Assembly (NCBI GenBank): GCA_963777605.1
Contig: CAVZRV010000011.1
Span: 224,001-288,000 of the forward strand
DNA: 64,000 bases
From: an uncultured Acidobacteriota bacterium
Lineage (GTDB): Bacteria; Acidobacteriota; UBA6911; RPQK01; JAPXNP01
Reading direction: 5' to 3'
Shown here in pieces: positions 3,268-61,013 of the stretch. The translations under genes were made by a program, and so were the position numbers. Each line of letters begins with the position of its first letter. Positions within the stretch are counted from its first letter, which is position 1. Below the pieces are notes generated by a model. It was not told the origin of the DNA. It saw nothing but the letters and a program-made list of their open reading frames with translations, and ran no database searches.

Positions 3268-4215
3268 TCAGCCGATCGGAATCCGGTCCTTGTTCTCAGC
3301 CAACCACTGAGAGAACGTCCGCAGAGCGGGATCAAGCGATCGAGCAACTTTCGGGTCCCGTGCGCCGCAGAAGTAATCCTCGAAATCTCGCTTGAACTGA
3401 AACATGTTTCCGAGATCATCGGCACCCGGGAATCCGAGGTTTCGGTACGCGTCCGGAGATATTGAATTGTAGTGGACTTCCTGGCCAAGGGCTTCACCGA
3501 GGGCCCGGGCCATTTCGGAACCGGTGAGGTGCTCGCCCGCGATACCCACGGTTCTGCCGATCCATTCAGCCCCCTGCGTGAAAATCCCGTAAGCGCACCG
3601 GCCAATGTCTTCCGCGGCGATTCCGGGAAGCTTCTTGTCCCCCATGGGGAGGGTGAACTGGAGCACCCCTTCCGAATCTCTCTTGGGGCCCATTCCGAAG
3701 TGGACCAGGTTGTCCCAATAGAACGAAGTCAGCAGGAAGGTCGTCGGCACGCCCAGTTCCGTAAACGTCTCATTCGACTGCCCCTTGGCGTCAAAATGCG
3801 GGACTTTGTAAGCTCCCATCAACGTCGGCATTCGCGAGTCGTCCAGGGGGACCCAACGCCTCGTGTCCTCCAGCGTAGACCAGATTACGTGTTTCGCGCC
3901 AACTGCCTTCGCCGCCTCGGCCATCGCCCGCACCTCCGCGATCTCCTTTTCCGGTGAGAAGTGCTCCCAATAAAATGTGACGCAGTAGATCCCGTGGGCT
4001 CCGGCGAACGCGTTTCTCAGACTCTCGGCATCGTCGATATCGGCCGCAACGACCTCCGCACCAAGTTCCGCAAGCTGTCGGGCGTTCGTTGAATCGGGGT
4101 TCCGAGTCAGGGCGCGCACCTTGAACCCGCCTTTCGGGTCCTCCAGAATGGCTCTGACCAGGCCGCCACCTTGGGCTCCCGTCGCACCAACAACCGCAAT
4201 TGTCTTTTCCGGCAT
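3268..4215 (-). CDS. NmrA/HSCARG family NAD(P)-binding protein
   Basis: VVGATGAQGG, VRALTRN, VPHFDAK. Confidence 0.9.
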   Translation of the reverse strand: MPEKTIAVVGATGAQGGGLVRAILEDPKGGFKVRALTRNPDSTNARQLAELGAEVVAADIDDAESLRNAFAGAHGIYCVTFYWEHFSPEKEIAEVRAMAEAAKAVGAKHVIWSTLEDTRRWVPLDDSRMPTLMGAYKVPHFDAKGQSNETFTELGVPTTFLLTSFYWDNLVHFGMGPKRDSEGVLQFTLPMGDKKLPGIAAEDIGRCAYGIFTQGAEWIGRTVGIAGEHLTGSEMARALGEALGQEVHYNSISPDAYRNLGFPGADDLGNMFQFKRDFEDYFCGARDPKVARSLDPALRTFSQWLAENKDRIPIG

Positions 4216-4375
4216 ATGTGGTTTCTCCCTCGTGAGGTTTTAGTCCTGGGGATTGGCTGTTGTTCAGTTATATGATCAATTGGTCGCGACGGTTGCACGC
4301 CGGGAGGGGAAAGCCGCAAGCGCCCCCCTGCCCCGCGTCAAGTCGGTGGAATGACTTTCGGTAAAGGAGAGACTG

Positions 4376-5713
4376 GTGAATACCGAGACACTGGCAAAGC
4401 TGCACGAGGATGCACTCGACATCTTCCTTGCCGCTCTCAGGGCTGTGGACCCCAACGCAGTTGTCCAGTCGAAGGTCCGTGTTGTGGACGACACCCTGTT
4501 CATCGGAGATCGCACCTACGACCTGAACGCCTTCGAGCGGATCCTCGTCGTCGGGGCGGGCAAAGCATCAGCGGCGATGGCGCAGGCTCTCGAAACGGTC
4601 CTCGGCGAACGGATTTCCGGTGGAGTTGTCAATGTCAAGATCGGGCACACGGTCGCTTTGCAGTCGATTGAACTGGTCGAGGCTAATCATCCGGTGCCTG
4701 ACGAGATGGGCCTCGAGGGAACTCACCGAATCATCGACCTGGTCAGTAACGCGACCGAGAAGGACCTCATCCTCTGCCTGATTTCCGGTGGAGGGTCTGC
4801 CCTTCTTCCGAGTCCGGGACCCGGCCTGAGTCTGGAGGACAAGCAGAGGACGACCCGCCTTCTCCTGCGATGCGGCGCGACCATTCAGGAAATCAATGCC
4901 ATCCGGAAACACATCTCGGGAGTGAAAGGGGGCCGACTGGCTCGACTCGCTTTCCCCGCAACCATGGTCTCGTTGATTCTTTCAGACGTCATCGGAGACG
5001 ACCTCGACAGTATCGCGTCAGGACCCACGGTCCCGGATCCCACCACTTTCTCGGAGTGCATGGAAATCGTTCAAAAATATGGAATCCTGGACGATCTTCC
5101 GGGGCCCGTGAAAGCGCTTCTGGAAATGGGCATCCAGGGCGCTGTTCCAGAGACCCCGAAACCGGGAGACCCGGTATTTGCGCGGACCCACAACGCCATC
5201 ATCGGCAACAACCTGCTCGCAGTGTCTACCGCGGAAACCCGTGCCCGTGAACTCGGCTATCATGCCCTCGTTCTCTCCACCATGATCGAGGGCGAAACCC
5301 GTGACGTGGCACTCGTTCACGCAGCCATCGCCAAGGAGATTCGAAAGAGTGGACGGCCGCTGGCGGCGCCGGCCTGTGTGATTTCGGGCGGTGAAACCAC
5401 CGTAACGATCCGGGGAGAGGGCGTGGGGGGAAGAAACCAGGAATTCGCCCTGGCGGCGGCGCTCGAAATCGACGGGTGGCCTGACCTGGTCATCCTGAGC
5501 GGCGGAACCGACGGAACCGACGGACCCACCGACGCCGCCGGTGCCGTAGCGGACGGCACGACCGTCCAGAGAGCGCGTGCCATGGGATACGAGGCCAAGG
5601 ACTACCTGCGCAACAATGACTCCTACAACTTCTTCAAGCCGATTCGTGGACTGCTGATCACCGGTCCCACGCTGACCAACGTCATGGATCTCAGGCTGGT
5701 GCTGGTTCGATAG
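4376..5713 (+). CDS. Glycerate 2-kinase (TtuD/GckA, MOFRL family)
   Basis: GAGKAS, LISGGGSAL, SDVIGDD..IASGPT, GGETTV, GGRNQE, GTDGTDG, TNVMD. Confidence 0.92.
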   Translation: MNTETLAKLHEDALDIFLAALRAVDPNAVVQSKVRVVDDTLFIGDRTYDLNAFERILVVGAGKASAAMAQALETVLGERISGGVVNVKIGHTVALQSIELVEANHPVPDEMGLEGTHRIIDLVSNATEKDLILCLISGGGSALLPSPGPGLSLEDKQRTTRLLLRCGATIQEINAIRKHISGVKGGRLARLAFPATMVSLILSDVIGDDLDSIASGPTVPDPTTFSECMEIVQKYGILDDLPGPVKALLEMGIQGAVPETPKPGDPVFARTHNAIIGNNLLAVSTAETRARELGYHALVLSTMIEGETRDVALVHAAIAKEIRKSGRPLAAPACVISGGETTVTIRGEGVGGRNQEFALAAALEIDGWPDLVILSGGTDGTDGPTDAAGAVADGTTVQRARAMGYEAKDYLRNNDSYNFFKPIRGLLITGPTLTNVMDLRLVLVR

Positions 5714-17763: not shown

Positions 17764-18275
17764 CGCATCGACTCCATTTTCACTCCCTATACTCTAGCTT
17801 GATGCGAATAACAGAGTCAAGGTTCAAACATCACCCGTCGATGGCCGGTTGCAGATCCTCACAGTTCCCTACAAAACCCATAGATCTTATGAAATTGGGC
17901 CATAACAAATATGGTCTTTGCAGGATGACTCTCCTGGCACAGGGCTCCGGGATTGCGTCTTCCGATCAATAAAAGATCAGTATATTCATAGGTTTGGCAA
18001 TCTCCCGTCCTGATCACCCGGAGTCTGGAACGTTTCTTGCTTCAGCTACTTCGAAATCAAATTCCATCCGCCAGGGCCGGGGGCGGCCCGTCACGCTTCA
18101 ACATGGAATGGTATGCAGCCTGCGGAGTCGCGACTGGCCAGGATCCGGTCTGGGGATGGAGAGTCCTTGGAATTCACGTTTCTCAAGTGAGGATGCTCTC
18201 TCAGCGTCGGTCGAGTAAGGCTTTTGCGAAGACTGACTTGATGCATCCGCGACAGACCAAAGGAGGGTGGTCAAA

Positions 18276-19390
18276 ATGCGAGTATCTACATCAATCCTGG
18301 GAGCAGGGGTTGCCGGTTTGGTAATGATGGTGGGTGGCGTCCAGACTGCGTACGGCCAGGGGTGAGTGGTCGCCCGTCAGGGTGCGCCCGTGATTGGCGC
18401 AATTACGCAGACAAGTCGGGCATTCGGTGAGGGCGGAGAGGCAGGGACCGGCACCAGGCCGAGATCGCCTGCAGACAAGTGGCTGATCGCTGTTGGATAC
18501 CGATGGCAAGATTCGTTCCGCCATTTTCGCGGACCCAACGAGGAAGCGAATCGGATTGCCGACGGCACTCAGGTCGAAAACAGACTGCACCTGTTTGACG
18601 TCGCGGTCAGCTACCAGGCGTCTCCACGATGGAGCGTCAATGCAAGTGCTCCCTTCATGACTGTGGACCGCATCTCTCACGGTCCCGGAACCGTGACTGG
18701 GAGTGCCGGAATCGGTGACATGTCGGTTGGGGCGAAGGTTTGGCTCTTTAAACCTCCTACCGAGTCCGGGCCAGAACATCCAGGTCGGATTCTCTCTGAA
18801 ATTACCCACAGGGGATTCCAACGTCACAGACCAGGTCGGAGACAGCACCGTGGTCGTGGACCAATCGATTCAGTTGGGAGATTCGGGAACCGGGTTTTCA
18901 GTCGATTACACGGCCTTCAAGACGATCAACCGATTCACTTTGTTCTCCTCGGGGGTCTACCTCTTCAACCCGAAAAACTCTTATACTCCAAAGGGATGGA
19001 ACGAATCTTATCGACCTCCCGGCTACCCGGGCTACTCCAGGCCGGGAACGGTCTATTCCGTTCCTGACGCGTATCTCGTCCAGGCTGGGATTCGGATACG
19101 CCCCACCAAAGCCGTTTTACGGTTTAGCGCTTACGGCCACAGGTCGGATTGAGGGGATTCCGGCATTCGACGTCATCGGTGGAGAGGACGGTTTCCGTCG
19201 TCCCGGGTATGCAGTGTCGGTGGGTCCGGGCTTGATGTTTACCAAGAACAGCGACACATTTTCATTCAGCGTCCCAATTGCTGTCTATCGCAACCGGACC
19301 AGAAGCGCTTCCGACATTGAGAGCGGGAGGCATGGAGATGCGGCTTTTGCCGATTACCTGATACTGCTCGCGTATTCCCGTACCTTTTAA
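18276..19390 (+). CDS. Outer-membrane beta-barrel 'transporter' (MetA-pathway-like) with in-frame UGA, candidate selenoprotein; internal frameshifts
   Basis: GGAGG RBS, signal peptide ending AYG, then QG-TGA(18363-18365)-VVAR in frame; GIGDMSV, LKLPTG, QLGDSG, FRRPGY motifs; C-terminal YSRTF. Confidence 0.72.
18383..18401 (+). promoter_or_regulatory. Candidate bacterial SECIS hairpin
   Basis: tgcgcc-cgtgatt-ggcgca starting 17 nt after UGA; GU at loop positions 2-3. Confidence 0.5.
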
Positions 19391-54843: not shown

Positions 54844-56762
54844 TTATTTCAAATTCCGGCGCTGATTCAGTTTCTGCCGGAGCTGTTCTTTTTGCCGGGC
54901 GAGGGCATCCACCTGCCGTTGAAGTTCCTGGTAGGTCTCAATCAGCACTACCAGCAACCCGCGATAGTTCACCTGGGGGACACTGTCCGGATTCCGGAGT
55001 ACCAATTGGGGGAAGAGCGTCTCGACTTCTTCAGCGATCAGGCCGATTCCGGGCTTTCCGGAATCCATCCAGTCGAACTGGACACCGCGCAGGTTCATCG
55101 TCTTTCGAAGCGTGTCGGAAAGCGGGAGGATGTTCGTCTTCAGGTTCCGAGAACTCGTCTGAAAGAAACTCGTCGCAGCGAGACCGCCATCGAATACGGC
55201 GTCTCCGCCGGTAGTGATCGTCAGTCGTCGCCGACCGTTGCCGCCGACGTACCGCCCCAGATCATTGATTAAGAACTCTCCCTGTCCGAAATCGGAAGCA
55301 TTCACTCCCACCACGAAAGACTTGATCGGCAGGCCGGTCTGGGTGGTTCGGACGAGCATGAATGCGGCCGAGTTGCTGCTGCGGTCGAGTCGGAAGACCG
55401 CGTTTGGTCCGCTGACGTGAAAGGCCCGGGAGGGAGCGTCGGTACCGACTCCGAAGTAGCCGACGACGGTGAACTTCTCGGTCATCGAGGGTGCACCGGC
55501 CTCTGGTTGGGCGAGGAAGAGGCCGTCCCCTGCCTTGGTACCCTTGACCGCTTGGGCGAAGACGATCTCGTTCAGGTTGTTCATGGCCACCTGGGCAATG
55601 CGTCCTGCAAACAGGGAACCGAACTGAGTGCCGGGCAAGCCCGGGATCGGGTCGTTCGCTCCCGCAATTCGGGTTAACCCTTTCGGCCCCGCATAAAGCA
55701 CGCTTCCCGCTGCACCGCCGACCAACTCGGTTCCGGTTTCCCAGTTGCCGGCAAACGCCACCGCCCCGGCATTGTTCAGGTCCAGGTCTACGAACGTCCC
55801 GTATCGAGGCGCGGCAAGGTTTCCGATTTGATAGGACGCCAGGCTGTTGTCCGCGATTCTGTACCGGAACAGGCTGGTCGTACCATCGTCGAGACTGGCA
55901 CTGAAGACCAGGTCTCCGCCGTCGTTCAGTACCGGGTCTCCAGGTCAGCCTGGAAGTGCACCTCACACGCTGGATCGGTGCACCCGGCGCCCCAAAACGG
56001 ATCGTCTACCGATGTGACGCGGGTCACCTCTCCGTCGGAAAACAGGCTGATGTGCAGGCCGGGTTTATCGGAGTTGAACTGCCCGGTCACCCACTGCTCT
56101 TCGAAGGCGATTTGACCTTCGCGGTTGAGAGAGAGGGCCGTCGGGACCACGTCCTGGTATTCGGTCGCGACTACGGAGGCGAACTGTCCGTCCGAGGCAA
56201 GAAAGAGGCGGATGCCGTTATTGGCCGTGCCCCCGGTAAACGCAATCTGATCCAGGTCATTCAGCGCAAAGTCCGCGATCGAAGTGGGCTCGGTAAAGGT
56301 ACCGTAGTCCACCTGGACGACCGTGGACCAGGCCCCGTCGGCGTAGAGGAAGACCCCTCCGAACGGAGCCCGGATCGCGACATGGCCCCGGTTGTTGATC
56401 CGCAGGTCGTGCACGCTGAGATCGGTTGCACCGGTGGGAAGAGGATCTCCCGAAAGGTAGAGCGGCTGGATCTCCCCGTCGTCGAAAAGGAAGACGCCCC
56501 CGGTTGTGGAACCGTTGAGGACGGTGGCACCGAAGACGACCTGCCCCAGGTCGTTGACGTCGAACTTGCCGAAGCGGTTGAACGTGCCCCCCGCGGTGCC
56601 CGGCGCGGGATCCCCGGTCAGGACGAGCGGTCGAATGGTGAAGTTCTCTCCACCGAGGCACCCCCCGATTCCGGCCCAAAGCACCAGGCTTGCAATCAGG
56701 CCGAATTGTGCAGACGGTCTGAACCGGGCAAGACATGAAGCATGACGAACTTGAGCAGGCAT
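54844..56762 (-). CDS. Secreted NxxGxxAF-repeat protein fused to S74-chaperone fibre (frameshifts about 55760-55930)
   Basis: NDLGQVVF, NNRGHVAI, NREGQIAF, NNLNEIVF; TSSRNLK..LRGVQFDW..GLIAEEV..VNYRGL. Confidence 0.72.
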
Positions 56763-56809
56763 AATCTGACCCTCCCCTGGTTTCTCATCATAAAGCCAGC
56801 CCACCCCAC

Positions 56810-57100
56810 CTAAGGATCTGGCAGGACTGGGAACGTACTCCTGTAGCTGTCGTCGACCCGAATGACGACCGTAATCAGGTCGGTTGAACTCGCAAACTCT
56901 GCTGTCCCCTGGGACTGATCCAGGCTTCGGTTAACCAGGATGAATTCGGTGGCGAAGTACTCGTCGGAATGTGTCGGCTCGTTCGCCCCCTCGGCAACTT
57001 GGGGAATCCAGATGGCGGCCGCCTGGATCTCAGCGGCTCCGGCGAACATGGAGAACAAGCCCAGTGCAACGAGAAATGAATACGGCCGCGATTTCACCAT
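56810..57100 (-). CDS. Small secreted protein or fragment (IPQVAEG domain similar to the 50842 tail)
   Basis: Signal peptide; WIPQVAEG..FATEFILVN resembles VFPQFADG..KTAFLLIN. Confidence 0.5.
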   Translation of the reverse strand: MVKSRPYSFLVALGLFSMFAGAAEIQAAAIWIPQVAEGANEPTHSDEYFATEFILVNRSLDQSQGTAEFASSTDLITVVIRVDDSYRSTFPVLPDP

Positions 57101-60287: not shown

Positions 60288-61013
60288 ATGATGGCTGATC
60301 AGCCACAAGGATGCGCTCGGATAACGGGTACTGTTACGGGCGAAAAGCACGAAAAGGAACAGGCAGTCGAGCAAGACGCCTCTAAGGAGGAAATCATGGC
60401 CGTCCGTGTTGGGCAAAATGCCCCCGACTTTGCCGCCCCGGCTTTCTACAAGGGCGGATTTACCAATGTGAAACTTTCCGATCACTTGGGGAAGTGGGTT
60501 CTGCTCTGCTTCTATCCCGGTGACTTCACCTTCGTCTGAGCGACCGAAGTGTCGGCGGTCGCCGACAAATACGACGTGCTGCAGGGAATGGGTGTCGAGG
60601 TTATCTCGGTCAGCGTGGACAGTCATTTCGTACACAAGATGTGGAACGACCACGAACTGGTGAAGATGGTTGACGGAGGCGTTCCCTTCGCAATGGCATC
60701 AGACCAGGCGGGCAACGTGGGAAAGGCCTACGGAGTCTTCGATGAGAACCAGGGAATCGAGCTTCGCGGACGGTTTATCATCGATCCGGATGGAGTTGTC
60801 CAGGCCATGGAAGTTCTGACCCCGCCGGTCGGTCGCCGGCTTGCAGAGACTGTTCGCCAAATCCAGGCATTTCAACATGTTCGGGCCACCAAGGGAGCCG
60901 AGGCAACTCCGGCCGGGTGGGAACCGGGCGACATTACGCTCAAACCGGGCCCGGATTTGGTTGGAAAGGTCTGGGAAGTCTGGAGTCCGTCCATGGAGAG
61001 CGCAAAGAAATAG
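60288..61013 (+). CDS. prxU: Selenocysteine-containing peroxiredoxin (PrxU/AhpC type)
   Basis: [12 protein letters not shown](60537)-ATE at the peroxidatic Cys position; frame continues [16 protein letters not shown]. Confidence 0.93.
60550..60567 (+). promoter_or_regulatory. SECIS element
   Basis: tgtcggc-ggtc-gccgaca perfect hairpin about 10 nt after UGA. Confidence 0.85.

Follow-up and report, generated by a model that had tools for sequence, protein, structure and literature searches.

The gene and its landmarks

The DNA considered here, referred to below as the window, is a stretch of 64,000 nucleotides (nt) from an uncultured Acidobacteriota bacterium (assembly GCA_963777605.1, contig CAVZRV010000011.1, positions 224,001–288,000), whose genome is labelled G000 in the comparisons. 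At 18276–19390 it carries a gene for a predicted outer-membrane β-barrel, in which a TGA codon stands in frame just behind the signal peptide. In an original prediction, made from the letters alone, this codon was proposed to encode selenocysteine (Sec, U) as the third residue of the mature protein. The landmarks on which that proposal was built, namely the ribosome-binding site, the ATG at 18276, the signal peptide ending in ..VQTAYG, the string CAG GGG TGA followed immediately by GTG GTC GCC CGT, and the terminal YSRTF, are all read directly from the sequence (Table 1). The same is true of the two arms and the loop of a hairpin (tgcgcc, 18383–18388; cgtgatt, 18389–18395; ggcgca, 18396–18401), which begins 17 nt past the UGA, lies with its loop 23 nt from it, and has G-U at loop positions 2 and 3. 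The further claim that the gene continues in frame into the barrel was wrong, as two +1 shifts (~18768 and 19087) interrupt it; a three-frame translation shows frame 1 to be coding only as far as ~18768, frame 2 as far as ~19087, and frame 3 up to the stop codon.

Table 1. Features of the barrel gene and of the selenoperoxiredoxin gene, in window positions
Feature	Position	Strand	Remarks
Shine-Dalgarno sequence AAGGAGG	18260–18266	+	9 nt 5′ of ATG 18276; read directly
ATG and 27-codon signal peptide MRVSTSILGAGVAGLVMMVGGVQTAYG	18276–18356	+	ends ..VQTAYG; predicted signal peptidase I cut after A-Y-G
CAG GGG TGA = Q-G-U, predicted mature N-terminus	18357–18365	+	Sec codon TGA 18363–18365 is codon 30
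SECIS-type hairpin	18383–18401	+	6-bp stem UGCGCC/GGCGCA, 7-nt loop CGUGAUU
Frame-1 part of the barrel open reading frame (ORF): flexible N-terminal tether and first strands	18366–18767	+	89% identity to P0004 residues 1–135
First +1 shift: one extra base in ccgggcc run	18766–18772	not assigned	window-only G against 7 homologues
Frame-2 part of the barrel ORF	18769–19086	+	94% identity to P0004 residues 136–242
Second +1 shift: one extra G in ctGGGat	19087–19089	not assigned	window-only G against 7 homologues
Frame-3 part of the barrel ORF, end ..YSRTF, TAA 19388–19390	19088–19390	+	88% identity to P0004 residues 241–340
PrxU selenoperoxiredoxin, one in-frame TGA	60306–60992	+	NF040737, 386.2 bits against a cut-off of 270

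The product is very probably an exported 12-stranded outer-membrane β-barrel of the FapF/COG4313 type with the mature N-terminus Gln-Gly-Sec, the UGA being read as Sec. In the mechanism proposed, SelB together with the tRNA for Sec (tRNA-Sec) would decode UGA 18363–18365 as selenocysteine, directed by a selenocysteine insertion sequence (SECIS) that the in-gene hairpin at 18383–18401 would provide. Relatives in Bacteroidota and some other groups carry Cys at the same position.

Selenocysteine and cysteine at one column

A protein search placed the gene in 12 of 61 related genomes, the window's own among the 12, at 13 places. In each of the 13, a signal peptide and Q-G are followed by a TGA that stands in frame at one and the same column, more than chance would give, and the 12 copies from the other related genomes remain in a single frame for 327–340 codons past the TGA. 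A scan of species genomes gave 582 relatives, of which the best 80 were analysed. The 93 loci examined are numbered L007 (the window) to L099, with L026 repeating L011; one of them, the unpublished L015 (from G018), is among the 13 copies of the relatives, the TGA loci, and the rows of the synonymous-site comparison below, and no conclusion rests on it. At the column in question, TGA is found in 41 of the 93 loci, TGT in 27, and TGC in 25, thus Cys in 52, in every case behind a signal peptide. The pairing of Sec with Cys at this position is thereby demonstrated, and so is the motif that had been proposed for the family, in which homologues start with QGCVAxR after the signal peptide. Five full-length Cys-form (QGC) proteins were found at 53–57% identity.

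The conservation of the N-terminus is strict. Across the 89 mature proteins aligned, from which the window and L030 (both frameshifted), L026 (the duplicate), and L015 were omitted, Q1, G2, and C/U3 are invariant (89/89), and V4 and R7 are nearly so; the 20 upstream codons are free of stops in all 92 distinct N-termini. For the window copy, a contig from an independent sequencing run spans the TGA and shows neither a gap nor a listed difference at this point. Of the sequencing runs listed as containing the stretch, none is an RNA run, and the DNA runs have only small shares of it.

A tree built on the barrel columns only separates two clades, an acidobacterial type (36 Sec and 2 Cys forms) and a Bacteroidota type (50 Cys forms and 1 Sec form, the latter from a Verrucomicrobiota record), and at least three changes between Sec and Cys are needed on it. 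By record title, Sec forms also come from Planctomycetaceae, Candidatus Deferrimicrobium, and one contig labelled Heliomicrobium (L022). This last contig, which encodes a Sec-form outer-membrane barrel, groups with Pyrinomonadaceae copies in the tree; Bacillota, to which its label would assign it, lack an outer membrane, and the contig is probably misbinned.

A conserved hairpin downstream of the UGA

The hairpin region aligns without gaps in the 40 distinct TGA copies, and the same local hairpin, 17 nt past the TGA, is found in all of them (−8.2 to −16.7 kcal/mol), with a UGA-to-loop spacing of 23 nt. As aligned, the loop is CGUG(A/C)UU-like in 37 copies, CGGUCUG in two, and CAGUUUG in one; its size is 7 nt, except for 5 nt in two copies and 3 nt in one, where extra pairs close it. 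In these variants, L024 and L029 show GGUCU on an 8-bp stem and L053 shows CAGUUUG as aligned, with a 3-nt loop when folded, and the peptide encoded by the hairpin changes accordingly (APGLG, ASGLG, and ALSLG). The constraints published for the bacterial SECIS (bSECIS) are a loop of 3–9 nt, a stem of 4–16 bp, a G in the first two loop positions, a spacing of 16–37 nt, and a minimum free energy (MFE) of −7.5 kcal/mol or lower (PMC13188914). Energy, spacing, and stem lie within these limits in 40 of 40 copies and the loop G is in place in 39, the exception being CAGUUUG; the original prediction, which saw in the window a hairpin 17 nt past the UGA with GU early in the loop and a fit to the bacterial consensus, extends to the family.

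Both pairing and synonymous sites support the SECIS. In the seven-pair helix, 88.9% of 280 cells are paired, compared with 21–52% when the 3′ partner is slid, and both sides have changed at four pairs (19 cells), a result that none of 500 shuffles matched, either in this respect or in covariation score. Because the hairpin also encodes a conserved peptide, A-P-V-(I/L)-G, synonymous sites were tested. Across 38 genes, Pro is always CCC (36/36) and Val always GTG (34/34), and Ala (GCG 26, GCA 4) is matched by Gly (GGC 34, GGT 4). Third-position variability amounts to 0–0.57 bits in the hairpin, compared with 1.34–1.96 bits at 16 control codons for A/P/V/G/R/S/T, taken from equally conserved positions of these genes outside the hairpin. 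The hairpin of the TGA form was seen in none of the 52 Cys forms. Comparative evidence of this kind supports the view that the conserved hairpin behaves as a SECIS.

Selenocysteine decoding machinery

The genome is equipped to decode Sec. Profile matches for selA (528 bits), selB (354 bits), and selD (363 bits) all exceed the curated cut-offs, and ARAGORN found tRNA-Sec at C7:942798–942896 of G000, so that all four components that had been proposed as a check are present. Among ten other genomes with the Sec form, selB is over the cut-off in eight. The gene for PrxU, cited in the original prediction as a sign that the genome decodes Sec, is confirmed in the window with one TGA and 386 bits against a cut-off of 270.

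Two side observations concern other selenoprotein genes of G000. The selD gene is itself one, with one TGA (C7:931111–932034), and lies ~11 kb from the tRNA-Sec gene. PrxU is present in three copies with one TGA each, at C2:7120–7806, at C4:11468–12154, and in the window; contig C4 duplicates the window region, and the copy on C2 is more diverged (87–95% identical).

Several results weigh against the Sec reading as developed so far. The 48 nt of the window at 18363–18410, folded as a single sequence, have another structure as their MFE fold (z = −1.48), and 15 of 200 shuffles of these 48 nt fold as well, which is not significant; Rfam gave no relevant match on 18250–18480 at E ≤ 10. In two genomes with the Sec form, selB was either not found at E ≤ 1e−60 (G023) or found only as a fragment below the cut-off (G040).

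Signal peptide and barrel fold

The signal peptide was judged from its hydrophobic core and from the −3/−1 rule. In all 92 distinct N-termini a hydrophobic core precedes, and the residue before Q (−1) is A, G, or S; in 91 of them, position −3 holds one of A, L, V, S, T, I, and G. Given that the N-termini fit the pattern of signal peptidase I, Sec would be residue 3 of the mature protein, as originally predicted.

AlphaFold2, run on the alignment of 89 rows, returned a confident 12-stranded barrel with a mean predicted local distance difference test score (pLDDT) of 85.3. The best matches of this model in the Protein Data Bank (PDB), according to Foldseek, are FapF (5o65; E 1e−12, template modelling (TM) score by target 0.71) and the COG4313 channel (4rl8; E 7e−9, 0.73), with TM scores by target of 0.68–0.73 over the FapF and 4RL8 matches, and the family profile also finds FapF by sequence (E 3e−11). 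On the three pieces of the window copy, Pfam and NCBIfam gave only sub-threshold matches. Matches to PF13557 (Phenol_MetA_deg) are weak to moderate: a window piece scores 14.6 bits against a gathering threshold of 22, the intact homologue L008 has no match, the Cys form L074 reaches 27.6, and L017 reaches 21.1; some of the 120 database proteins nearest to the family carry a precomputed assignment to this domain.

State of the window copy and alternative readings

The alternative that survives best leaves the reading of the family unchanged and concerns the window copy alone. According to it, this copy is a real and very recent pseudogene, disabled by two genuine +1 insertions of G, and the genome makes no such selenoprotein. 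In a DNA alignment with seven close homologues, all of which lack both shifts, the window has a G of its own once in ccGGGcc and once in ctGGGat. In addition, the paralogue search of the genome found no second copy that could compensate, on a rough, unverified map the ORFs that flank the gene within the window's first 27 kb appear intact, and another copy from a long-read-style metagenome-assembled genome (MAG), L030, is likewise in two frames. Nevertheless, the rest of the gene is undecayed. The window copy keeps 67 of 68 conserved columns, and the TGA, the SECIS, the Shine-Dalgarno site, and the signal peptide are all intact. The single change, from Q238 to A, was considered as a sign of decay and rejected, as P0004, a one-frame database protein of 340 residues that is intact and 89–94% identical, also lacks Q there. 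Moreover, a related contig from another soil run (run X2), which differs at 11 other letters in 151, is one base short at 18766 and thus lacks the extra base of the first site.

The assembly itself bears on this question. Small contigs of G000 duplicate parts of large ones at ~97–98% identity, with many 1-nt indels between them; over 124.6 kb of duplicate contigs compared, the frame is broken by 279 indels on the small-contig side and by 165 on the large-contig side, two of them in the window. Such figures fit an indel-prone, strain-mixed assembly, and its frameshifts should therefore not be taken as biology without reads. Examples of such duplicate pairs are C16 and C31, C3 and C35, and C4 and C11:272853–286664; gap openings number, for example, 374 in 44.8 kb. 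Elsewhere in the window, at 54844–57100 on the − strand, three adjacent ORFs (305, 292, and 96 aa) look like the fragments of a single gene that two 1-nt deletions, near 55937 and 56792, have broken up; over this gene the frame stays open for 506–655 codons in the duplicate contig C4, compared with 334–366 in the window contig. In L030, which lies on a long MAG contig, the Sec-form copy at 4001–5006 is divided into ORFs 4001–4579 and 4278–5006, and this split may be the same kind of long-read indel as in the window.

The window copy does not have the uninterrupted frame expected of the gene, as it contains two +1 shifts, and no contig from the sequencing runs searched spans 19082–19291, which leaves the second shift without support either way. 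In the first 27 kb of the window, most neighbouring ORFs appear whole, by a rough ORF map made without homologue comparison, so that two errors in one gene of 1.1 kb would be unexpected. On balance, given that the assembly is indel-prone and that a relative of ~90% identity is intact, consensus error is the somewhat more probable source of the two extra G's; a recent pseudogene is a somewhat less probable explanation that retains considerable weight. Neither cause alters the Sec reading at the level of the family.

That the UGA is a true stop is very improbable. It would end a leader ORF of 29 codons, the barrel would be a separate ORF starting from GTG 18366, and the hairpin would serve as a coupling or regulatory element. 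A GTG does stand directly 3′ of the TGA in 35 of 38 copies, and this is the call made by gene callers in most database entries. The barrel would then have no signal peptide, although its fold is that of an outer-membrane barrel; in 92 of 92 N-termini, a signal peptide stands in frame with no other stop, 52 homologues read through with Cys at exactly the same codon, the hairpin obeys the SECIS rules, and the carriers have selB. The other reading, in which the invariant Cys/Sec is no redox or metal residue and is instead the acylated first residue of a lipoprotein cut by signal peptidase II, draws on the lipoprotein-like look of an invariant Cys just after a signal peptide with Gly at −1, and it deserves hardly any credence: the lipobox consensus is [LVI][ASTVI][GAS]C, with A/S/T-type residues at −2 and L/V/I at −3, but in the family position −2 from the Cys/Sec is always Q and position −3 is A/G/S, the signal peptidase I rule is obeyed in 91 of 92 by a cut two residues further upstream, the near-invariant V4 and R7 are unexplained by a lipid anchor, and swapping an acylated Cys for Sec brings no obvious benefit.

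Possible function

For the exported Sec barrel, the original prediction also proposed a role, that of a channel with a metal-binding or redox Sec. The exported barrel stands. As to the role, its support is the single neighbour that recurs at the acidobacterial-type genes, an exported TlpA/ResA-like protein of thioredoxin fold that has a CxxC motif and adjoins 11 of 41 acidobacterial-type loci (10 Sec, 1 Cys). We infer that the Sec serves as a metal-binding or redox hook. In such a mechanism, a single selenol (or thiol) would sit on a flexible N-terminal tether of ~40 residues as a hook that binds soft metals or undergoes thiol redox chemistry, and would thereby serve the channel or gate it, and, in part of the family, the neighbouring periplasmic TlpA/ResA-like reductase would keep the hook reduced.

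Several results tilt against such a role. No TlpA-like neighbour was found near the window copy or in the 1.5-kb flanks of the copies from 11 related genomes, and the neighbour search found no recurrent metal gene beside the Sec forms, where a TPR/multihaem protein occurs in three loci and a response regulator in three loci. AlphaFold2 leaves residues 9–36 unplaced (pLDDT < 50). Of the 52 Cys forms, 45 have a second Cys no more than 20 residues on; of the 40 Sec forms, 18 have one, the window copy not among them, and 22 lack it. A simple redox pair can thus not be general, and, with the second Cys mostly missing from the Sec forms, a flexible tether with a lone nucleophile or soft ligand is favoured over a fixed redox pair.

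TlpA reduces the cysteines at the copper sites of ScoI and CoxB, and Ni, Cu, and Tc are chelated by peptides that begin with X-Gly-Cys; on these grounds a metal hook is plausible. A more specific version of the idea, which we regard as rather unlikely, is that NH2-Gln-Gly-Sec forms an amino-terminal chelate from the free amine, two backbone amides, and the selenolate, similar to the amino-terminal Cu(II)- and Ni(II)-binding (ATCUN) motif with Sec or Cys in place of His, and that the channel takes up or passes on a soft metal (Cu, Ni, Hg) or chalcogen species at its periplasmic mouth. If this were true, Acidobacteria would have upgraded the ligand to selenium, with a TlpA-like reductase resetting it, and the protein would be a selenoprotein for envelope metal trafficking, not catalysis.

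Relation to known proteins

The family resembles FapF (PDB 5O65/5O67) and the COG4313 channel Pput2725 (4RL8) in being a 12-stranded outer-membrane barrel of ~300 residues with an N-terminal extension. It differs from both in that identity is only ~14% and neither of the known proteins contains Sec; furthermore, neither a fap operon nor aromatic-degradation genes adjoin the family. To our knowledge, the mature N-terminus Q-G-(C/U)-V-A-x-R is not a described feature of FapF or Pput2725. As in E. coli fdhF, a UGA is combined with a hairpin in the coding region, and the hairpin agrees with the consensus bSECIS in having loop G-U at positions 2–3 and ΔG ≤ −7.5 kcal/mol; unlike that of fdhF, to which it is unrelated in sequence, it has its own loop, CGUG(A/C)UU, and encodes A-P-V-(I/L)-G.

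Outer-membrane selenoproteins catalogued so far are the GSU2204 family with a CXXCH motif (MtrB/PioB-type, NF041027) and the TonB-dependent receptors of the FCYXU type (NF049945) (PMC13188914). Like these, the present family is a predicted bacterial outer-membrane barrel with Sec; unlike it, they are MtrB/PioB and 22-stranded TonB barrels with Sec in other motifs. Membership in the GSU2204 family was considered and rejected, as NF041027 gives 10.1 bits (E 0.24) on a window piece against a cut-off of 350. Table 1 of a 2026 review lists 119 prokaryotic selenoprotein families, including two outer-membrane barrels, and contains no PF13557/FapF-like barrel and no QGU motif (PMC13188914). No model of NCBIfam 20.0 matches an intact homologue. 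The accessible portions of published full texts, including PMC12013277, PMC9312934, and bioRxiv 10.1101/2022.07.06.499078, hold no description of the family, and their supplements may list it without a label.

'Hypothetical protein' and 'MetA-pathway' are the names given to the 120 nearest database entries, 115 of which have no signal peptide. Annotation pipelines and selenoproteome surveys miss the family because gene calls truncate it nearly everywhere; it is uncatalogued and widely mis-annotated in soil Acidobacteria. Acidobacteriota are among the commonest soil bacteria, with few selenoproteins recorded, and the family adds to them a predicted selenoprotein that is secreted and embedded in a membrane. 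For the single acidobacterium tested with deep-Sep, three known and no new selenoproteins are given (PMC12013277). The barrel family as a whole counts more than 5000 database proteins at E ≤ 1e−10 and is uncharacterised; the invariant third mature residue points to a functional residue in it and offers a target for mutagenesis in cultured Bacteroidota with the Cys form, which by record title include Arundinibacter, Spirosoma, Flectobacillus, and Cyclobacterium.

Gene neighbourhood

A scan for promoters and terminators on the + strand near the barrel gene gave no match. The names of the neighbours in the window suggest no relationship: they are a Na/sulfate symporter, an isocitrate/isopropylmalate dehydrogenase, a glycosidase-like protein, a GFO/IDH/MocA oxidoreductase, and a P-type ATPase. 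These genes are not conserved next to the homologues. Other neighbours were seen at the Bacteroidota loci with the Cys form (L038–L099): a membrane-anchored protein of ~180 aa that belongs to no family lies just upstream in 25 of 80 loci, 15 of the 80 have a second Phenol_MetA_deg-like barrel of ~300 aa, and 19 have one or two vanadium-haloperoxidase-like PAP2 proteins of ~450–540 aa (PDB 4CIT, E 2e−15).

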